Shown here: positions 1 through 9,399 of the stretch, piece after piece
Layout: every line of letters starts with the position of its first letter
Numbering within the stretch: position 1 is the first letter of the stretch
Sequence record: SRR20825006_230
DNA length: 45,225 nt
Strand: one strand, 5' to 3'
Notes under the pieces: model-generated
What the model was told of the DNA's origin: nothing
Databases searched by the model: none
What the model saw: the letters and a program-made list of their open reading frames with translations, nothing else
Position numbers and translations under genes: made by a program

Positions 1-261
1 GCATCCGACGACCGCAGGGAGAGGAATGCATCTGGTGTGCTTTGTAATATTGTTAGTTGAATTAGTATTAGCAAATCGAGGATACGAGATTCACGAGCTC
101 CCGTAAAATAACAATCACGCGAGTAAAGAAAATGAACAAACACGATTTCTGATAAAATCATTAATCTACTTATAACGGCATCTCACCTAACATCAACTTG
201 TCTAATGAATAATTTTTTAAAAGTAATTTTAAAAAATATTGGTCTCTTTCTGAACGATGTG

Positions 262-269
262 TATCTTTG
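262..269 (+). promoter_or_regulatory. Bacteroidota housekeeping-sigma -7 element (TATCTTTG), trp operon promoter
   Basis: Exact match to TAnnTTTG, ending 9 nt before the leader-peptide ATG. Confidence 0.7.
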
Positions 270-278
270 AGGCTCATT

Positions 279-326
279 ATGAAAAACAAAACAGTAAATA
301 CTTGGTGGTGGATCTCGCAACAGTAA
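279..326 (+). CDS. trpL: trp operon leader peptide MKNKTVNTWWWISQQ (15 aa; not in ORF track)
   Basis: ATG 279, three consecutive TGG codons at 303-311, TAA 324-326; directly upstream of an attenuator and trpE. Confidence 0.92.
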   Translation: MKNKTVNTWWWISQQ

Positions 327-360
327 CGTCGTGAAGCAACCTTGTATTTAATATCAAAAT

Positions 361-397
361 AAAAAAAGGCCTGTCTCACGACAGGTCTTTTTGTTTA
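361..397 (+). terminator. trp attenuator terminator
   Basis: Stem GGCCTGTC(368-375)/GACAGGTC(380-387) with one G-U, loop TCAC, followed by TTTTTGTTT; GTCGTGA (328-334) is complementary to TCACGAC (376-382), giving an antiterminator. Confidence 0.88.
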
Positions 398-415
398 TAA
401 GCCTATCAACCAAAA

Positions 416-1813
416 ATGAAATACACCTTAAAAACCCACAGCAAAAAAATTCTTGCAGATACCATCACTCCGGTGTCGGTTTACCTGCGTCTGCGTGACA
501 AGTTCCCTAACAGCTTACTCCTTGAGAGTAGCGACTACCGGGCTAACGACAACACCTTCAGCTATATCTGCTGCAAACCTATCGCTTCGATCACCGTAAA
601 AAACGAAGTGATCACGGAAGTTTTCCCTGACGGAACAACCACAACCACGGCCATTGAAGGTGATACCGATGTGGTAGGCATCATTGAAGGTTTTGCTAAA
701 AAATTTGAGACCGAAGACAACGAACAGAAGTTCATTCAAAACGGACTCTTCGGCTATATGAGTTATGATGCCGTGCGTTATTTTGAGGATATTGAGGTGA
801 CCAAAAAAGAAGCGCCGCTTGATGTGCCAGACTTGTATTATGCAGTCTACCAAAACATCATCGCCATCAATCACTTCAACAATGAAGCGCACATTTTTTC
901 ACATACCTATAACGAAGAAAATAACCTCAGCCAGATCGCACAACTGCTCACCGTAAAAAGTTTTGCCGAATATCATTTTAAGCTGGAAGGCGAGCAACAA
1001 TCGCAGATGTCGGACGAGGCTTTTATAGAGCTGGTAAAAACCTGTAAAAAGCATTGCCAGCGTGGAGATGTGTTTCAGATTGTTCCATCTAAACGCTTTT
1101 CACAAGGCTTCAGCGGAGACGAGTTTAACGTGTACCGAAGCTTACGCAGCGTCAACCCTTCGCCGTATCTGTTCTTCTTTGACTATGGAAATTTTAAAAT
1201 CTTCGGAAGTTCGCCTGAAGCACAGCTCATCGTTAAAGAAGGCAAAGCCGAAATTCACCCAATTGCCGGGACCTTTAAACGTACCGGAAATGATGAAAAA
1301 GACGCCGCTTTGGCCAAGAAACTTTCTGAAGATGCCAAAGAGAACAGCGAGCACGTGATGCTGGTCGATCTGGCCCGCAACGACCTAAGTCGTAATGGCA
1401 GTAACGTAAAAGTAGAAACCTATCGCGAGGTACAGTACTTTTCGCACGTAATCCATTTGGTGAGTAAAGTTACAGGAACTAAACATCCTGACACCTCAAC
1501 CATGCGGGTCGTGGCAGACACGTTTCCGGCAGGAACTTTAAGTGGTGCGCCCAAACACAATGCGATGAAATTGCTGGAAAAATACGAACCCATAAACCGT
1601 GATTTTTACGGAGGTGCAATTGGATTTATGGATTTCAACGGAAACTTTAATCATGCGATCATCATCCGTTCCTTTTTAAGTAAAAACCACCAATTGCATT
1701 ACCAAGCGGGAGCAGGAATCGTTAGCGACAGCGTACCGGAAAAAGAATTAGAAGAAGTATATAATAAATTAGGAGCCCTTACCAAAGCCCTTAAACTGGC
1801 TGAAGAACTATAA
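416..1813 (+). CDS. trpE: anthranilate synthase component I
   Basis: LLES-x10-S and NPSPY Trp-feedback motifs, GSSPE, PIAGT, EHVMLVDLARNDL, FPAGTLSGAPK, AGAGIV. Confidence 0.97.
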   Translation: MKYTLKTHSKKILADTITPVSVYLRLRDKFPNSLLLESSDYRANDNTFSYICCKPIASITVKNEVITEVFPDGTTTTTAIEGDTDVVGIIEGFAKKFETEDNEQKFIQNGLFGYMSYDAVRYFEDIEVTKKEAPLDVPDLYYAVYQNIIAINHFNNEAHIFSHTYNEENNLSQIAQLLTVKSFAEYHFKLEGEQQSQMSDEAFIELVKTCKKHCQRGDVFQIVPSKRFSQGFSGDEFNVYRSLRSVNPSPYLFFFDYGNFKIFGSSPEAQLIVKEGKAEIHPIAGTFKRTGNDEKDAALAKKLSEDAKENSEHVMLVDLARNDLSRNGSNVKVETYREVQYFSHVIHLVSKVTGTKHPDTSTMRVVADTFPAGTLSGAPKHNAMKLLEKYEPINRDFYGGAIGFMDFNGNFNHAIIIRSFLSKNHQLHYQAGAGIVSDSVPEKELEEVYNKLGALTKALKLAEEL

Positions 1814-1814
1814 C

Positions 1815-2387
1815 ATGAAAAAACGAGTTTTAGTCATAGACAATTACGACAGTTTTGTGTACAATCTGGTACACTATCTTGAAGATTTAGACTGCGAAGT
1901 CACCGTAAAACGTAACGACCAACTGCAACTAGAAGAAGTGGATGCTTTTGATAAGATCCTGCTGTCACCGGGACCGGGAATTCCCGAAGAAGCCGGTCTG
2001 CTTCTGGAAATTATTAAAACCTATGCGCCTACTAAAAGTATGTTTGGCGTTTGCTTAGGCCAGCAGGCTATTGGTGAAGTTTTTGGCGGTACCCTTATCA
2101 ACTTAGATCAGGTGTTTCACGGGGTTGCGACGTCGGCTAAACAACTGGTGACTGATGAGCCCCTTTTTAAAGATATTCCTACGGAATTTGAAATTGGCAG
2201 ATACCATTCGTGGGTCGTTGCTCCTGAGAATTTCCCGGAAACTTTAGAGATCACTTCGGTGGACGTAAATGGTCAAATCATGTCACTTCGTCATAAAGAA
2301 TACGATGTGCGCGGCGTGCAATTCCATCCGGAATCGGTACTGACTCCCGAAGGCAAAACAATGATCAAAAATTGGGTAAATAATTAA
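1815..2387 (+). CDS. trpG: anthranilate synthase component II (glutamine amidotransferase)
   Basis: IDNYDSF, LSPGPG, GVCLG, GRYHS, GVQFHPES motifs; operon position. Confidence 0.95.
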   Translation: MKKRVLVIDNYDSFVYNLVHYLEDLDCEVTVKRNDQLQLEEVDAFDKILLSPGPGIPEEAGLLLEIIKTYAPTKSMFGVCLGQQAIGEVFGGTLINLDQVFHGVATSAKQLVTDEPLFKDIPTEFEIGRYHSWVVAPENFPETLEITSVDVNGQIMSLRHKEYDVRGVQFHPESVLTPEGKTMIKNWVNN

Positions 2388-2397
2388 ATATTTTTCT

Positions 2398-2420
2398 ATT
2401 TCCGTGAAGATGGAAATCTC
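2398..2420 (+). repeat. solo REP-like palindrome, variant copy (ATTTCCGTGAAGATGGAAATCTC)
   Basis: 20/23 identical to 6347-6369; the changes keep the stem paired (C-G to T-A, G-C to G-T). Confidence 0.85.
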
Positions 2421-2463
2421 ACAAAAATAATAATGCTCCCCTACGGAGTACTTATAGCGAATA

Positions 2464-3459
2464 ATGAAAACAATATTAAACCGACTCATAAACCACGAGC
2501 AGCTGACTAAAGAAGAGGCACGCGAGGTTTTGGTCAATATTTCAGAAGGAAAATACAACACCAGTCAAATTGCGGCGTTCATCACCGTGTATATGATGCG
2601 TAGCATTACTGTTGAAGAACTTGCCGGCTTTAGAGATGCGTTGCTCGATTTGTGCATTGCTGTCCCCTTTGACGGATACAACGCGATAGATCTCTGTGGA
2701 ACCGGTGGTGATGGTAAAAACACGTTCAACATCTCAACGCTTTCCTCATTTGTGGCAGCAGGTGCAGGAATCAACGTAACCAAGCACGGAAACTACGGAG
2801 TTTCTTCCGTGAGCGGGAGCAGCAACGTTATGGAAAGCTTCGGAATAAAATTCACCAACGATGCCGACTTTTTAAAGCGCTGTCTGGATGAAGCAGGAAT
2901 TTGTGTACTGCACGCGCCGCTCTTTCATCCCGCGATGAAAAATGTGGGACCTATTCGTCGCGAACTCGGGGTAAAAACCTTTTTCAATATGCTGGGCCCT
3001 ATGGTGAATCCGGCGTTTCCTGAGAACCAACTCGTGGGTGTTTTCAATCTGGAACTCGCCCGTTTATACGGGTATCTGTATCAGGACACCAAAAAGAACT
3101 TCACCATTTTACACAGTATCGATGGCTATGACGAGATTTCCCTTACCGGAAATACCAAAGCCATTCGCAACAACAGCGAGCGTATGTTGACTGCTGAAGA
3201 TTTTGGGGTTCATGCCATCAAACAGGAAGATATTTATGGTGGCGACACCATCGAATCTTCTGCGGCGATTTTTAAAAAAGTGATCAGCGGTAAGGGTACC
3301 GAAGCGCAAAACAATGTGGTTTGTGCCAATGCCGGCATGGCCATTGCCACCGTTAAAAACCTCGAGCCTAAAGCAGGTTTTGAACTTGCCAAAGAATCGC
3401 TTCTAAGCGGAAAAGGACTCGAACGCTTAAATAAACTCATAGCCCTAAGCAGCAAATAA
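2464..3459 (+). CDS. trpD: anthranilate phosphoribosyltransferase
   Basis: DLCGTGGDGKNTFNIST, KHGN, HAPLFHPAM, GYDEIS motifs. Confidence 0.97.
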   Translation: MKTILNRLINHEQLTKEEAREVLVNISEGKYNTSQIAAFITVYMMRSITVEELAGFRDALLDLCIAVPFDGYNAIDLCGTGGDGKNTFNISTLSSFVAAGAGINVTKHGNYGVSSVSGSSNVMESFGIKFTNDADFLKRCLDEAGICVLHAPLFHPAMKNVGPIRRELGVKTFFNMLGPMVNPAFPENQLVGVFNLELARLYGYLYQDTKKNFTILHSIDGYDEISLTGNTKAIRNNSERMLTAEDFGVHAIKQEDIYGGDTIESSAAIFKKVISGKGTEAQNNVVCANAGMAIATVKNLEPKAGFELAKESLLSGKGLERLNKLIALSSK

Positions 3460-3460
3460 A

Positions 3461-4243
3461 ATGAATATTCTAGACAAAATAATCGCTGATAAATGCAAAG
3501 AAGTGGCTTTACGCAAGCAGCTGATTCCGGTGAAGCAATTGGAACAGTCGGTGCTTTTTGAACGTAAATCACCATCACTTGCACAAGCCTTGAGCACAAG
3601 CGCTTCAGGGATCATCGCAGAGCATAAACGCCGGTCGCCCAGTAAAGCAACTATAAATAATAACCTCAACGTGCAAGATGTAGCCAGTGGTTACGAGCAC
3701 GCCGGAGTTTGTGGAATGAGCGTACTTACTGATGGAAAATATTTTGGCGGTTCGCTAGACGATTTGTTAATGGCGCGCGCCGCAGCGCAATTACCGCTGT
3801 TACGCAAAGAATTTGTGATCGACACCTATCAAATTCTGGAAGCGAAAGCGTATGGCGCAGATGTGATCTTGCTCATTGCCGCAGTGCTCACACGGGAAGA
3901 GATCAAAACCCTATCAGAATTTGCCAAATCGCTTGGTCTTGATGTACTTCTCGAGGTGCACAATCTGGAAGAATTGCAAAAGTCGGTGATGCCGTCTTTA
4001 GATATGTTGGGCGTAAACAATCGCAACCTGAAAACTTTTGAAGTGAGCCTCGAAACCAGCAAAAGCCTATCGGCTGAAATCCCGGATGATTTTGTAAAAG
4101 TATCTGAAAGCGGCATCAGTTCGATCGAAGCGATCAAAGCCTTACAGCCGTATGGCTACAAAGGATTCCTTATTGGCGAGAACTTTATGAAAACCGATGA
4201 TCCCGGCGCCAGCGCAACCGAGTTCATCAATAAACTGAAGTAA
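3461..4243 (+). CDS. trpC: indole-3-glycerol phosphate synthase
   Basis: IIAEHKRRSPSK, SVLTD, LLRKEF, GVNNRNL, SESGI, LIGE motifs. Confidence 0.97.
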   Translation: MNILDKIIADKCKEVALRKQLIPVKQLEQSVLFERKSPSLAQALSTSASGIIAEHKRRSPSKATINNNLNVQDVASGYEHAGVCGMSVLTDGKYFGGSLDDLLMARAAAQLPLLRKEFVIDTYQILEAKAYGADVILLIAAVLTREEIKTLSEFAKSLGLDVLLEVHNLEELQKSVMPSLDMLGVNNRNLKTFEVSLETSKSLSAEIPDDFVKVSESGISSIEAIKALQPYGYKGFLIGENFMKTDDPGASATEFINKLK

Positions 4244-4247
4244 AGGC

Positions 4248-4306
4248 TCCCTCCTTTTGAAGGAGGGGAATGTTTCAACAAAGCTGAAACAGGGGTGGTT
4301 ACCCCT
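4248..4306 (+). repeat. cluster of three adjacent hairpins (REP-like, CCCTCC/GGAGGG type) in the trpC-trpF spacer
   Basis: CCCTCCTT/AAGGAGGG (4249-4267), TGTTTCA/TGAAACA (4271-4291), AGGGGT/ACCCCT (4291-4306). Confidence 0.65.
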
Positions 4307-4324
4307 ATTTTATGAGAAGATAAA

Positions 4325-5041
4325 ATGAAAAATAAGGATAGAGTCAAATATCATAGTAAGGCTGCTTCCAGTTCAAACGGGCTGAAGCTAAAGGTTTGTG
4401 GAATGAAACACAACACCCTTGACGTAGCCCAACTCAAGCCGGATTATTTGGGTTTTATCTTCTTTGAAAAAAGCAAACGAAATTACGACCAAGCAGCTAT
4501 TGAAACCCTTCCGGAAGGGATACAGAAAGTGGGCGTTTTTGTAGATGCAAGCATCGAATTTGTCATCAATAAAATCAAGCAATTTAAGTTTGATGTGATT
4601 CAGCTGCACGGCAGCGAAACTCCCGAATATTGTAAGACGCTTCAAAGCGGTTGTCTTATCGAGCGCAGTCGAGATACTGCAGAAGCTACTCCTTCCAAAA
4701 TACCCGAAATCTGGAAAGTCTTCAGCATAAAAGACCACTTTGACTTTTCAGTTTTGGAAGCTTATGAAGCTGTGGTCGATAAATTTTTATTTGACACCAA
4801 AGGAAAGGAAAAAGGCGGCAATGGCTATACCTTTGATTGGAGTGTGCTCAAAGAGTATCCTTCGCAAAAGCCTTTTATGTTAAGTGGCGGTATAGGATTA
4901 GTCGAAATCGTAGCGGTAAACGAACTTAAAAAAACAACGATTCCGCTGGCGGGGATTGATGTCAATAGTAAATTTGAAGACGAACCGGGATTAAAAAATA
5001 CAGACTTGTTAAAGTCACTTATAAAAGAATTAAATAGATAG
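4325..5041 (+). CDS. trpF: phosphoribosylanthranilate isomerase (about 20-aa N-terminal extension; internal insertion)
   Basis: KVCGM, GFIF, VGVFV, QLHGSE, LFDT, GGNGYTFDW, LSGG, IDVNSKFE motifs; exact start uncertain. Confidence 0.93.
   Translation: MKNKDRVKYHSKAASSSNGLKLKVCGMKHNTLDVAQLKPDYLGFIFFEKSKRNYDQAAIETLPEGIQKVGVFVDASIEFVINKIKQFKFDVIQLHGSETPEYCKTLQSGCLIERSRDTAEATPSKIPEIWKVFSIKDHFDFSVLEAYEAVVDKFLFDTKGKEKGGNGYTFDWSVLKEYPSQKPFMLSGGIGLVEIVAVNELKKTTIPLAGIDVNSKFEDEPGLKNTDLLKSLIKELNR
4652..4676 (+). repeat. REP-like hairpin in-frame within trpF (TGTCTTATCGAGCGCAGTCGAGATA)
   Basis: TCGA-GCGCAG-TCGA stem-loop with a GTC-type head, in a low-complexity loop encoding CLIERSRD; inner motif resembles 5106-5119. 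Confidence 0.55.
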
Positions 5042-5063
5042 AGATTTCTGTCTAAGTTGAAAT
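5042..5063 (-). repeat. highly degenerate REP-like copy right after the trpF stop
   Basis: AGATTTCTGTCTAAGTTGAAAT matches AGATTTCCGCCTTCGCGGAAAT (6777-6798) at 16/22 without gaps. Confidence 0.45.
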
Positions 5064-5083
5064 AAAAGAATACTGTGAATTAA

Positions 5084-5130
5084 AAGATTTCCGCCCAGTT
5101 TATCCTGAGCGATAGCCGAAGGGCGGAAAT
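5084..5130 (-). repeat. REP-like palindrome with a second hairpin repeat nested in its loop
   Basis: Perfect arms ATTTCCGCCC(5087-5096)/GGGCGGAAAT(5121-5130); the loop carries ATCCTGAGCGATAGCCGAAGG. Confidence 0.8.
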
Positions 5131-5144
5131 ATCAATATAGAATT

Positions 5145-6329
5145 ATGAACTACAACGTAAATGAAAAAGGATATTATGGAGATTTTGGTGGTGCCTACAT
5201 CCCAGAAATGCTATATCCTAATGTAGAAGAGCTGCGTCAGAATTACTTAAAAGTGATGCAGGAGCCGGATTTTCAGGAAGAATTCAAGGCGCTTTTAAAA
5301 GAATATGTAGGTCGCCCTACCCCATTATATTATGCCAAGCGTTTTTCCGAAAAATATGGAACAAAAGTGTACCTCAAACGGGAGGATCTGTGTCACACAG
5401 GAGCACACAAAGTGAACAATACCATTGGTCAGATCTTGATGGCCAAGCGCCTGGGTAAAAACCGTATCATCGCTGAAACCGGTGCCGGTCAGCACGGGGT
5501 GGCTACGGCTACCGTATGTGCGTTGATGGGCTTAGAATGCATCGTGTATATGGGTGCGATAGACATCAAACGTCAGGCACCTAACGTAGCCCGGATGAAA
5601 ATGCTTGGCGCCACAGTAGTCCCTGCAGAATCTGGTAGCAAAACTTTAAAAGACGCGACCAATGAAGCCATTCGGGATTGGATCAATAATCCGACTGATA
5701 CGCATTATATCATTGGTAGTGTGGTAGGACCTCACCCCTATCCCGATATGGTGGCGCGTTTTCAAAGTGTGATCTCTGAAGAAGTAAAAAAGCAATTATT
5801 GGAGAAGGAAGGTAAAGAAAATCCAGATTATGTAGTGGCCTGCGTAGGCGGCGGAAGTAACGCAGCCGGGATTTACTACCATTACCTAGATACACCGGAA
5901 GTGGGTATCATCGCCGTAGAAGCAGCCGGGAAAGGAATCCACTCCGGGGAAAGCGCCGCAACTTCAGCCTTAGGTAAAGAAGGCATCATTCACGGAAGCA
6001 AAACCCTGCTGATGCAAACCGATGACGGGCAGATCACAGAGCCGTATTCTATTTCCGCAGGTCTTGATTATCCCGGAGTTGGGCCTATGCACGCGCATTT
6101 ATTCAGAAGCGGCCGTGGGGAGTTCATCAGCATTACCGATGATGATGCGATGCAAGCCGGTCTTGAATTGTGTAAACTGGAAGGGATCATCCCCGCGATC
6201 GAATCGTCTCACGCTTTGGCCATTTTTGAAGAGCGCAAGTTTAAAAAAGATGATGTAGTGGTCGTGAATTTGAGCGGTAGAGGAGATAAGGATTTGAATA
6301 CGTATATAGATTACTTCAAACTCGCTTAA
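5145..6329 (+). CDS. trpB: tryptophan synthase beta chain
   Basis: [15 protein letters not shown] (PLP lysine), [39 protein letters not shown]. Confidence 0.98.
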
Positions 6330-6344
6330 GCGTGTTTGAATTTT

Positions 6345-6368
6345 TCATTTCCGCGAAGGCGGAAATCT
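6345..6368 (+). repeat. left REP-like palindrome TCATTTCCGCGAAGGCGGAAATCT
   Basis: 8-bp stem ATTTCCGC/GCGGAAAT, GAAG loop. Confidence 0.95.
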
Positions 6369-6392
6369 CTTGAATGTAAGCACACATTAGTA

Positions 6393-6686
6393 ATGGAAGA
6401 ATTATTCTTTACATACATTCTTACCAATAAAAATCATACGGTGCTTTACATTGGGGTTACCAATGATTTAAAAAGAAGACTTAAACAACACAAACAAAAG
6501 AGCAATAAAGGATTTACAGGAAAGTACAATGTTGAGAAACTCGTCTATTTTGAATCTAGCCCTTATGTCGAAAACGCCATTAAAAGAGAGAAACAGCTCA
6601 AAAAATGGAATCGAGCCTGGAAAGAAAATCTAATCAACGAAATGAATCCTGATTGGAACGATCTGAGTTGGATGCTGAACGAATGA
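6393..6686 (+). CDS. small stand-alone GIY-YIG nuclease family protein (97 aa)
   Basis: TYIL...LYIGVTNDLKRRLKQH...LVYFE...AIKREKQLKKWNRAWK...NPDWNDL; catalytic Y, R, E present. ATG 6393 preferred over TTG 6336, which would translate the REP. Confidence 0.92.
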   Translation: MEELFFTYILTNKNHTVLYIGVTNDLKRRLKQHKQKSNKGFTGKYNVEKLVYFESSPYVENAIKREKQLKKWNRAWKENLINEMNPDWNDLSWMLNE

Positions 6687-6727
6687 GGCTTCCGAAGAGT
6701 ACAACATATTTAAAATTTGACTTGGAT

Positions 6728-6742
6728 TTAAAAGATTTCCGC
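6728..6742 (-). repeat. half-copy of the REP-like palindrome (TTAAAAGATTTCCGC)
   Basis: Identical 15-mer at 5080-5094; ends with one arm of the palindrome. Confidence 0.75.
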
Positions 6743-6776
6743 AGCGTACATAATTGAAATTAGAATTAGACTGGTA

Positions 6777-6801
6777 AGATTTCCGCCTTCGCGGAAATGA
6801 C
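6777..6801 (-). repeat. right REP-like palindrome (minus strand GTCATTTCCGCGAAGGCGGAAATCT)
   Basis: Exact inverted copy of 6345-6368, with a GTC head. Confidence 0.95.
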
Positions 6802-6816
6802 TTAAAAAATAATATA

Positions 6817-7581
6817 ATGAACAGAATAAATAAGAAATTACAGGAAAGCCAAAAACTGCTTTCTATATATTTTACCGCAGGTTATCCTGAGTTGGAAGAC
6901 ACTACAACGGTTATTGAAAAACTGGTGGAATCAGGAGTTGATATGATCGAGATCGGTTTGCCGTTTAGCGATCCGCTGGCAGATGGACCAACGATTCAAG
7001 AGAGTTCTACCGCAGCTTTAAAAAATGGAATGACCACCGCCAAGCTCTTTGATCAGATCAAAGACATCAGAAAATCGGTTGATATCCCATTGATCGTGAT
7101 GGGGTATTTTAATCCGATGCTTCAATACGGCGTGGAAAAATTTTGTGCCACTTGTGCTGAAATAGGCATAGACGGACTCATTATGCCAGATCTCCCGCTT
7201 GCGGAATATGAAGAACACTATCAAGCTACCTTTGAAAAATACGGTCTTAAGATGATCTTCCTGATCACGCCACAAACTTCAGACGAGCGCATCAGACAAA
7301 TCGATGCTGCGAGTGATGGTTTTATTTATATGGTGAGTAGCGCGAGTACTACGGGGAAAACTTCGGGCTTCAGCAGTGTGCAAACCGATTATTTTGAGCG
7401 CATCGCTGCCTTGAAACTTAAAAACCCACAGATCGTGGGCTTCGGGATCAAAGATGAAGAAACCTTTAAGGCTGCAACACAAACTGCAAAAGGCGCCATC
7501 ATAGGTTCAGCATTTATAAAAACCCTTACCGAAAAAGGTTTAGACGGGATAGAACCGTTCATAAAAAGTATAAGATCCTGA
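6817..7581 (+). CDS. trpA: tryptophan synthase alpha chain
   Basis: YFTAGYP, IEIGLPFSDPLADGPTIQ, MGYFNP, PDLP, VGFGI, IIGSA. Confidence 0.97.
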   Translation: MNRINKKLQESQKLLSIYFTAGYPELEDTTTVIEKLVESGVDMIEIGLPFSDPLADGPTIQESSTAALKNGMTTAKLFDQIKDIRKSVDIPLIVMGYFNPMLQYGVEKFCATCAEIGIDGLIMPDLPLAEYEEHYQATFEKYGLKMIFLITPQTSDERIRQIDAASDGFIYMVSSASTTGKTSGFSSVQTDYFERIAALKLKNPQIVGFGIKDEETFKAATQTAKGAIIGSAFIKTLTEKGLDGIEPFIKSIRS

Positions 7582-7664
7582 GTATTAACCCGCTTTTAGC
7601 AAGTTCTTACCATTAATTAACAGCTGCGCTTCGTATCTTGTTTTCAACAAAAAAGAAAACTATT

Positions 7665-7793
7665 ATGGATAAGAAATTTGAACGTACTGTAGATCAAAAG
7701 AACCCAACGAATCCTACAGGAAATAGAAACGAGAAAACCAACAAGGTGGATATTGATGAGAAAACCATCAAAGACCAACAGAACAAGCACTAA
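7665..7793 (+). CDS. unannotated 42-aa hydrophilic small protein MDKKFERTVDQKNPTNPTGNRNEKTNKVDIDEKTIKDQQNKH
   Basis: A-rich initiation context (AAAACTATTATG), open frame to TAA 7791-7793, strong terminator 27 nt downstream. Confidence 0.65.
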   Translation: MDKKFERTVDQKNPTNPTGNRNEKTNKVDIDEKTIKDQQNKH

Positions 7794-7819
7794 GCGCTTG
7801 CACTAACTACCAAAAATTG

Positions 7820-7849
7820 AAAAGCCGATACTTTACGTATCGGCTTTTT
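7820..7849. terminator. bidirectional intrinsic terminator
   Basis: AAAAGCCGATAC/GTATCGGCTTTT perfect 12-bp stem between convergent genes. Confidence 0.9.
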
Positions 7850-7857
7850 AAATGCGT

Positions 7858-9399
7858 TTAATTAGTATCACTCCCTACCAAATTGTACGTAGGATCTTCA
7901 ATAATATTTACATCAATGATCGCCTCGGCGTTCTTTAACAGACGACGACAATCAGGACTCAAGTGTCGTAAATAAACTGTTTTACCAAGTTTGTGATAAC
8001 GGCTGGTAACGACGTTTAAAGCTTCGATAGCAGACATATCTGCTACCCTACTTTCCTTAAAATCAATGATGACTTTGTTGGGGTCATTCAGAATATCAAA
8101 CTTCTCTGTAAAATTAGTCGTTGAAGCAAAAAATAATGGTCCGTAAATCTCATAATGTTTGGTTCCTTCATCATCTACATATTTTCTAGCTCTAATGCGT
8201 TTTGCACTTTCCCAAGCAAAAAACAAAGCCGAAAGGATCACACCTACCAATACCGCCAGTGCAAGGTTGTGTAGAATCACCGTAATCGCAGCCACGATGA
8301 TCACCAAGAAAATATCTTTTTTAGGCACTTTGTTGAAAATACGAAGCGTCGCCCACTCAAAGGTACCTACCGCAACCATAATCATCACCCCTACGAGTGC
8401 CGCCATCGGAACTTTCTCAATCACCGGCGCACCGAATAATACGATCATCAAAATAGTTAATGCAGCGATAATACCAGATAAACGCGCTCTGGATCCCGCG
8501 GAAAGATTTACTAAGGTTTGTGCGATCATCGGGCAACCTCCCATTCCGAAGAAAAAGCCGTTAAGTAAATTAGAACTTCCCTGAGCGATACACTCTCGGT
8601 TTCCGTCCCCTTTAGTTTGTGTGATCTCATCTACAAGATTCAACGTAAGCAAACCTTCAGTAAGTCCTACAGCCGCCATCACCATAGAATACGGTGCAAT
8701 CACTTTTAAGGTTTCGTAAGAAATAGGAATTTCAGGAATATGGAACGGAGGAAAACCACCACTTACCGAAGCGATATCTTTCACCGTTTTAGTATCAATT
8801 CCAAAGAAATACACAAGTGCAAAAACCACAATAATCGCCACCAACGAAGAAGGTACAGCCTTAGTCAATTTCGGAAGAAATATAACGATCAATACCGTAA
8901 GGGCTGCCAGACCTGCCATAATCAATAAAGGCGTACCGGTTAACCACGCAACCTCGCCATTGACCAAAGTTTTAAACTGTTTGATCTGCGACATAAAAAT
9001 CACGATCGCAAGACCGTTTACAAACCCAAACATTACCGGGTGTGGTACCAGACGAATAAACTTCCCCAGTTTAAACAGTCCGATCAACACTTGAATTACA
9101 CCGGCAAGTGCCACGGCCGCTAAAACATATTCTAAGCCGTGCGAATTCATCAATGCAATCAGCGTGATCACTGTGGCTCCTGCTCCACCTGAAATCATCC
9201 CGGGACGACCTCCAAAAATCGCAGTGACCAAGCCCGCGATAAACGAAGCGTATAAGCCCATTAAAGGCGGCAGACCGGCAAGGATTGCAAAAGACAAGGA
9301 TTCTGGGATCATCGTCATCGCTACGGTAAGACCGGCAAGAATTTCGGTTTTGTAATTGACCTTTTGGGTGAGATCAAATAAGTTGAATACCTTTTTCAT
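7858..9399 (-). CDS. SulP/SLC26 inorganic anion transporter with C-terminal STAS domain
   Basis: EILAGLTVA..IPES.SFA..AG.PP..GLYAS, GRPGMISG, many TM segments, YGPLFFAS and D.SAIEAL STAS motifs; TATTTTTG promoter at 9486-9493 (minus). Confidence 0.92.
   Translation of the reverse strand: MKKVFNLFDLTQKVNYKTEILAGLTVAMTMIPESLSFAILAGLPPLMGLYASFIAGLVTAIFGGRPGMISGGAGATVITLIALMNSHGLEYVLAAVALAGVIQVLIGLFKLGKFIRLVPHPVMFGFVNGLAIVIFMSQIKQFKTLVNGEVAWLTGTPLLIMAGLAALTVLIVIFLPKLTKAVPSSLVAIIVVFALVYFFGIDTKTVKDIASVSGGFPPFHIPEIPISYETLKVIAPYSMVMAAVGLTEGLLTLNLVDEITQTKGDGNRECIAQGSSNLLNGFFFGMGGCPMIAQTLVNLSAGSRARLSGIIAALTILMIVLFGAPVIEKVPMAALVGVMIMVAVGTFEWATLRIFNKVPKKDIFLVIIVAAITVILHNLALAVLVGVILSALFFAWESAKRIRARKYVDDEGTKHYEIYGPLFFASTTNFTEKFDILNDPNKVIIDFKESRVADMSAIEALNVVTSRYHKLGKTVYLRHLSPDCRRLLKNAEAIIDVNIIEDPTYNLVGSDTN

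Follow-up and report, generated by a model that had tools for sequence, protein, structure and literature searches.

Why should a gene for a small nuclease sit inside a tryptophan operon, and what do the hairpins beside it do? The stretch of DNA that raises these questions (hereafter the window; 45,225 nt of sequence record SRR20825006_230) carries a complete trp operon (trpE, trpG, trpD, trpC, trpF, trpB, and trpA), with a Bacteroid-trp leader RNA (Rfam RF01692) at 259-375, upstream of trpE. The genes trpB and trpA, both recognized by Pfam, are separated by a gap of 487 bp that holds a 97-aa GIY-YIG gene and an inverted repeat around it. A preliminary description of the locus had proposed that the nuclease may recognize and cut these flanking hairpins and so disseminate or maintain them, in analogy with REP-associated tyrosine transposases (RAYTs). 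The host is very probably Leeuwenhoekiella, a marine genus of the Flavobacteriaceae, because the closest named protein relatives of the nuclease come from that genus.

Homology places the window cassette in the Ssn family, described in 2025 as single-domain GIY-YIG nucleases (cd10448) with flanking NTS/SRM hairpins (PMC11893778). We compared the window protein with the 94-aa N. gonorrhoeae SsnA orthologue (locus L066), which was found through a single match to the published ssnA primer and stands in for the N. meningitidis protein. The two are 54% identical (46/85) over 85 of 94 residues (blastp E = 1e-32; tblastn against the gonococcal locus, E = 1e-25 at genome-size database), well inside the family limits of E < 1e-10 over >75% of the length of SsnA, and the protein lies under the 150-aa limit set for single-domain members. 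Pfam gave GIY-YIG alone (PF01541, E = 2.8e-20 over residues 6–79), and the HUH Y1 transposase domain (PF01797) was absent. The equivalents of the SsnA catalytic residues (Table 1) are all invariant in a 34-sequence alignment, as is R29, and G21 is nearly so; the nuclease residues singled out in the preliminary description are therefore intact. The structure model (pLDDT 88.6) has UPF0213, Slx1, and UvrC as its nearest folds. Nothing in the PDB was closely related in sequence (UPF0213 BH0048 came nearest, E = 3e-4) or in fold, NCBIfam returned nothing above cut-off, and identity as UvrC, Slx1, or an intron endonuclease was ruled out, as matches to these were weak and partial. Intact ssn copies of the lineage found at trpB-trpA (the trp lineage) have dN/dS values of 0.03 to 0.41 where dS could be estimated, indicating purifying selection. 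The window gene is one among thousands of Ssn homologues.

What is known of the family bears directly on the proposed activity. Ssn proteins bind the hairpin only as ssDNA and nick it a few bases 5′ of its head, as shown for four homologues (PMC11893778). In Neisseria, cutting by SsnA is governed by the GTC head, whose G is required, and the nick lies 5 nt upstream of that G (20-nt product of NTS75); N. meningitidis SsnA cuts transformation by hairpin-bearing DNA about five-fold, and Neisseria SsnA does not bind RNA (PMC11893778). By analogy with this family activity, the window protein very probably does recognize and cut its flanking hairpins, as ssDNA, although the idea itself had already been published in 2025. 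The remark in the preliminary description that no GIY-YIG system had been characterized for such repeats proved mistaken, since PMC11893778 describes NTS-ssnA-NTS; its discussion likens this arrangement to IS200/IS605 elements and to REP-associated transposases (RAYT/REP).

Table 1. Positions of the cassette, its neighbors, and related repeats in the window.
Feature	Positions	Strand	Remarks
trpB, tryptophan synthase beta	5145..6329	+	left neighbor; final ~30 nt form one edge of allele swaps
Left Ssn-related hairpin (SRM variant)	6344..6369	+	8-bp stem, 4-nt loop, T-headed; head away from gene
ssn, 97-aa single-domain GIY-YIG nuclease	6393..6686	+	Y8/Y19/E66 equivalent to SsnA Y6/Y17/E64
Tandem partial duplication, half hairpin at end	6704..6742	+	44-nt period with 6748-6786; unit number variable in relatives
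Half copy of hairpin	6733-6742		within tandem partial duplication
Right SRM hairpin, GTC-headed	6776..6801	-	head towards trpA
trpA, tryptophan synthase alpha	6817..7581	+	right neighbor; first ~50 nt moved along in one swap set
Solo SRM, trpF-trpB	5085..5133 (about)	-	second hairpin inserted in loop
Degraded solo SRM, trpG-trpD	2395..2418	+	6 mismatches; 3 in nearest genome G001

The arms of the inverted repeat (6345-6368 and 6777-6800) are 24 nt long and 100% complementary, each folds as an 8-bp stem with a 4-nt loop, and the 24-mer has two matches in the window at up to three mismatches, compared to none in 100 shuffles. Their distances from the gene, 24 and 90 nt, are within the 500 bp allowed for flanking hairpins of the family. 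The gene opens with ATG; the ORF call extends upstream to a TTG at 6336, and close orthologues begin at the ATG. The repeat had been called GTC-headed, which holds for the right arm but not for the left, where T replaces G at 6344. The solo copies reported in the operon are present but all degraded. Rfam matched the hairpins to no RNA family (window 1-8000 scanned), a promoter scan stayed at chance level (8 versus 7.6), and neither cassette arm scored as terminator-like. Further repeats occupy the operon and its relatives. Tandem arrays of a half hairpin plus ~30–35 nt are found at window 6704-6786 and in the G007, G012, and G334 spacers (1 to about 6 units), and their unit number also varies among environmental contigs. 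In many SRM copies, among them window 5085-5133 and those in the trpB-trpA spacers of G020, G023, G013, G005, and G015, the loop encloses a further hairpin similar to another SRM-like repeat class. In the trpC-trpF spacer (window 4245-4310), three hairpins in a row (z = -3.2) belong to an unrelated repeat family, which recurs in the trpB-trpA spacers of G022, G014, G021, G015, and G019 and may be linked to DUF559 nucleases.

Judged by its letters, the window hairpin is a variant of the Ssn NTS/SRM motif: of 28 positions, 5 in the right arm and 6 in the left depart from NTS, and the published degenerate SRM pattern matches both arms at two mismatches, not at 0 or 1. Among 27 main-lineage cassettes, this pattern had no exact match and fitted both arms at two mismatches in two. 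Most arms are TTC-headed: among the 25 left arms detected, 17 have this head and 1 has GTC, and among the 24 right arms the numbers are 12 and 7. For the window itself, the left-arm call among these 25 took the wrong hairpin, the true arm being TTC-headed. At other Flavobacteriaceae ssn loci, the pattern was found at one mismatch in 2 of 28, though hairpins are visible by eye in most. Metagenome relatives of the window protein (80, at 53–67% identity) behaved differently from controls, as the preliminary description had anticipated. Within 250 nt, an exact SRM was present in 20 and a 1-mismatch SRM in 33 of the 57 with full flanks, compared to 1 among 29 control regions at a distance of 1.2 kb and 5 among 57 shuffles; 19 of the 57 had it on both sides (14 heads-out, 2 heads-in) and no shuffle did. 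Exact-pattern SRMs on both sides were reported for only 42% of homologues, and Supplementary Data 4 of the same paper credits 7 of 8 Leeuwenhoekiella genomes with an ssnA homologue but puts the SRM counts of the genus at background (PMC11893778), because the published pattern misses hairpins of the trp-lineage type. The T-headed hairpin thus leads to an undercount of the Ssn system in Flavobacteriaceae. Neisseria SsnA depends on the GTC head to cut, and the trp lineage would therefore either cut T-headed sites or leave most of its arms bound but spared; its cognate site may differ from NTS, or T-headed arms may stay uncut. A T-headed hairpin, of which we found no report in the literature searched (subscription journals outside coverage), may point to a cleavage specificity that is new and could serve ssDNA tools.

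Across Flavobacteriaceae, the trp-lineage Ssn lives at the trpB-trpA junction, where its presence is patchy and the gene often broken. Ssn-like matches (E ≤ 1e-15) occurred in 165 of 301 family genomes. Among the best 19 outside the genus (62–71% identity), 18 have trpB and trpA as their immediate neighbors, and the other one, at a contig end, comes after trpB with one extra gene in between; none is a trp-lineage copy at another kind of site. The comparison of this junction in relatives that the preliminary description had suggested gave ssn at 8 of 21 scorable genus loci (22 taken; G010 lies on a contig without trpB). A nuclease was present at 22 of 120 family loci, these being the best 120 of 283 genomes with a match as ranked by TrpA similarity; 18 belong to the main trp lineage and two each to a second and third Ssn lineage, and each of the three has its own hairpin type. 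Of the gene-less loci with a trpB end, 30 of 96 have a spacer of ≤16 nt, and in many of the rest the spacer is occupied by other repeats or by SRM dimers without a gene. G126 has both arms, decayed, and no gene between them, many gene-less genus alleles retain the right hairpin, ssn is broken in 6 of 27 main-lineage copies (G007, G018, G077, G237, G314, and G334), and G285 has no clear ATG. On the TrpA+TrpB tree (FastTree; 142 of 145 rows scored), ssn presence changed at least 19 times, gains and losses being inseparable. Metatranscriptome contigs, in which DNA carry-over is possible and which as contigs are no proof of transcription, run through the cassette into trpA. A single DNA contig joint lacking the cassette was set aside as probably from another organism.

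The junction is also a hotspot for several repeat families (spacers L181-L300). Many genera have an element of ~100 nt starting GGGCGTT there, which occurs in both orientations; in G266, G193, G301, and G256, SRM dimers without a gene begin exactly one base past the trpB stop; and trpA starts with GTG in eight genomes with 3–4 nt spacers. The spacer of L037 (G028) holds one reading frame between heptamer tandem arrays, which we take to resemble a four-helix-bundle protein.

We measured exchange at the junction as synonymous third-position differences in ssn relative to recA and trpA, for 36 pairs among nine genomes. Four pairs stood out (Fisher p 1e-4 to 4e-15): G007-G011 (ssn 2/78, 0.03; recA 114/305, 0.37; trpA 100/212, 0.47), G012-G016 (5/82; 120/299; 85/222), G001-G020 (9/82, 0.11; 99/299, 0.33; 73/228, 0.32), and G056-G139, which are of two genera (9/81, 0.11; 102/264, 0.39; 87/188, 0.46). 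Excess ssn similarity was present in 8 of the 36 pairs, forming three sets, with G007-G012 reaching only p = 0.008 against trpA. The remaining 28 pairs were near saturation, and slow evolution of ssn as the cause was ruled out by control pairs such as G001-G006 (ssn 0.38, recA 0.37, trpA 0.42). The nuclease and host trees are concordant in outline (three partial rows left out), and AU tests on the nuclease tree rejected two host clades (p = 0.007 and 0.004) and not a third (p = 0.33). Because these groups were picked after viewing the trees and the alignment has 96 columns, we give the weight to the synonymous-site test. It indicates that ssn was recently exchanged laterally at the same site in three genome sets, one of them across genera.

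The exchanged tracts are short, identity falling within about 50 nt of the trpA start in G011 and about 15 nt in G056/G139. G006 and G023 are 94–100% identical in trpB/trpA except for the last 50 nt of trpB (88%), and differ in the cassette; one breakpoint falls within the final ~25 nt of trpB, the other in the right hairpin. In the gene-less pair G013 and G005, the non-coding spacer is nearly identical and keeps the right hairpin, the junction-proximal 50 nt are 90% identical, and the rest is mostly about 70–85%. At other junctions, ssn was less diverged than its flanks at bioD-ssn-bioA (0.02 versus 0.14 and 0.24 versus 0.45–0.50; 3 of 15 pairs clear) and at hisH-ssn-hisA (0.04 versus 0.17–0.20; 1 of 1 pair), and showed no excess similarity at ssn-trpE (0.44 versus 0.45; one pair) or paaZ-ssn (0.52 versus 0.47–0.54; one pair). 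The literature searched, with subscription journals outside coverage, yielded nothing on site-fixed lateral exchange of ssn at trpB-trpA, and among the papers listed from 2024 onwards none took up the Ssn work. We conclude that what is added to the known Ssn system is fixed residence at trpB-trpA and recent exchange between species there.

Other Ssn lineages, which differ in hairpin type from one to the next, lie at junctions between co-oriented genes of metabolic operons: bioD-bioA (L009, L049-L051, L058, and L062), before trpE (L086 and L089), hemB-hemL (L088), paa genes (L056, L095, L048, and L065), and after dut (L061). At hisH-hisA, a different lineage (L057:1495-2589 in G020; L059 in G011) is fused in frame to HisA. 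The 365-aa ORF has GIY-YIG at 3–76 and His_biosynth at 118–354, the right hairpin serves as linker, the HisA ATG has become a leucine codon, and an internal Met lies 15 codons upstream; the hisA start is normal in four sister genomes (the G006 locus left out). This cassette makes an essential enzyme dependent on the cassette's own frame. A more distant GIY-YIG gene (L010, G001:C10:524909; 39% identity) is flanked by long inverted repeats whose head, GTCAC, is of another type.

Genome-wide repeat counts for the window type were taken from G001, whose orthologue is 96% identical and has the same layout. It carries seven copies, and 23 genus genomes carry 0 to 12; at up to two mismatches, the repeat is present in 69 of 301 family genomes, with a maximum of 14. 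It occurs in 54 of the 165 genomes with an Ssn match and in 15 of the 136 without one (33 of 143 versus 15 of 136 once 22 trp-lineage carriers are removed), and at least three copies are found in 13 of the 22 carriers, their own flanks included, 14 of the 143 other Ssn-positive genomes, and 3 of the 136 Ssn-negative ones; kin are not independent in any of these counts. G154 (10 copies) and G226 (6 copies) have no Ssn match at 1e-15, so the preliminary expectation that repeat abundance follows the gene stands in general and fails in these two. Its other concern, a RAYT elsewhere with the same repeats, was addressed with five Y1 transposase loci in five genomes, none of which carried the repeat within seven mismatches; on these five genomes, a RAYT as owner of the window repeat was rejected. 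Gene and repeat thus travel together, but as a handful of copies, not a REPIN population. A Y1 transposase at L098 (G001:C8:488805; PF01797, RAYT-like) has flanking palindromes of its own, unrelated to SRM.

How might these observations fit together? We consider it probable that the cassette, a hairpin, the ssn gene, and an inverted hairpin, combines vertical residence with short-patch exchange. It would be a semi-selfish long-term resident of trpB-trpA, inherited vertically with frequent decay and loss. Sequence comparison shows that short patches of the spacer pass laterally between species and renew the cassette, with the conserved end of trpB, the hairpins, and the beginning of trpA as anchors of the exchange. 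Incoming ssDNA would be a likely route; comEC is present in 5 of 5 genomes. Following the published family members (PMC11893778), the protein should bind its own hairpin only as ssDNA and nick a few bases 5′ of the head. Because the heads point outwards, any cuts would lie beyond the cassette, one close to the trpB stop and the other close to where trpA starts; for the right arm, the minus-strand cut is predicted near 6806/6807, which is 10 nt short of trpA. Cutting at hairpins might, as in Neisseria, restrict or trim donor DNA and leave exchange confined to the spacer. The cassette would not be a transposase moving to new sites.

This reading and the three that follow are not mutually exclusive. 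The nuclease could promote its own spread into the orthologous junction in a cycle of invasion, decay, and reinvasion, either because it nicks the hairpin that alleles lacking the gene retain or because it destroys such alleles as they enter. Such homing-like drive, which we regard as possible though doubtful, would explain why ssn is less diverged than its flanks at trpB-trpA, bioD-bioA, and hisH-hisA, and it fits the right hairpin retained in gene-less genus alleles, the near-identical G006 and G023 with their breakpoints at the trpB end and right hairpin, the three Ssn lineages sharing one gap, and the frequent pseudogenes. However, gene-less spacers were exchanged too (G013 and G005), and the exchange hotspot therefore does not require the gene in cis; the swap pairs are unpolarised, the ssn-trpE and paaZ-ssn pairs show no excess, and the Neisseria enzyme lowers recombination (PMC11893778).

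Seeding of solo hairpins genome-wide by the nuclease, as a RAYT would do, we judge unlikely. The higher repeat frequency in Ssn-positive genomes, the multiple copies in trp-lineage carriers, the gene-less dimers of other SRM types right past the trpB stop, and the absence of the repeat from the five Y1 loci all agree with it, as does the report of CGTC repeats without a dedicated transposase (PMC3733652). Set against these are the low copy number (hundreds in Neisseria), the multi-copy genomes without an Ssn match, and the confinement of the trp lineage to one site, with no new insertion observed. GIY-YIG enzymes hydrolyse, and we know of no covalent strand-transfer step for them. Of the original claim of dissemination, then, the association of repeat with gene survives, and the spreading itself stays a conjecture. 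Very improbable, in our estimate, is a host function at the RNA level, in which the hairpins tune trpB/trpA expression through mRNA stability or translation and the gene is a passenger. In its favor, the left arm lies mostly 7–19 nt past the trpB stop and the right arm 15–20 nt ahead of trpA across the 27 cassettes, and the metatranscriptome contigs, carry-over permitting, span the cassette; but many gene-less spacers are very short (30 of 96 at ≤16 nt) and some contain unrelated repeats, neither arm resembles a terminator, the protein is under purifying selection, and Neisseria SsnA does not bind RNA.

Residence with short-patch exchange therefore remains our preferred reading. We offer only tentatively, and expect it is rather less likely to be right than wrong, the extension that Ssn cassettes are chromosomal single-strand homing elements, each lineage with its own hairpin at a fixed operon junction (trpB-trpA, bioD-bioA, or hisH-hisA) and spreading between species and genera via cuts in hairpin-bearing ssDNA while genes are transferred, the trp lineage having shifted to, or being protected by, T-headed hairpins. 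The locus is a test case for the questions left open by the Ssn paper, whether NTS-ssn-NTS is mobile and what its role is outside Neisseria. Nearly identical genomes carry the junction with and without the cassette (G006/G023), swaps have been dated, and a single site hosts three pairings of enzyme and hairpin, which makes homing versus restriction directly testable in marine bacteria.

Among known systems, SsnA/NTS is closest (PMC11893778). Both have a ~95-aa single-domain GIY-YIG protein with the Y/Y/E residues, flanking hairpins (a GTC head, a stem of 8 bp followed by C, and a loop of 4 nt), and solo copies elsewhere. In the trp lineage, however, the stem has T-A for one C-G pair, most arms are T-headed, repeats are few per genome, and the nearest hairpins in the window are heads-out, whereas the nearest heads at the Neisseria locus face the gene. 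The fixed position inside an amino-acid operon and the lateral exchange there are likewise absent from the main text of PMC11893778, which has no mention of operon, Bacteroid, or Flavobacter. CGTC-1 REPs, reported in Bacteroidetes, and Neisseria dRS3 share the 8-bp stem starting with AT pairs, the 4-nt loop, a short unpaired tail, and heads-out dimers (PMC3733652), but the trp-lineage head is usually T rather than CG, and no enzyme was then known for CGTC-1. RAYT/REPIN systems (TnpAREP, HUH Y1) also pair a single-copy, long-resident gene with inverted palindromes and have gene-less dimers elsewhere; they differ in fold and chemistry from the GIY-YIG enzyme of the window, whose repeat number is low and whose mobilization of repeats we judge unlikely. 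Free-standing GIY-YIG homing endonucleases of the phage T4 Seg type are intergenic and patchy, leave pseudogenes, and transfer to orthologous sites with short co-conversion. The window cassette resembles them in its place between conserved genes, its patchiness, its pseudogenes, and its short exchange tracts, and differs in having no separate DNA-binding domain, in lying in a chromosomal operon, and in its predicted ssDNA hairpin substrate. A property by which homing endonucleases are recognized, transfer to the orthologous site in other genomes, is one that trp-lineage ssn, on its synonymous sites, shares.
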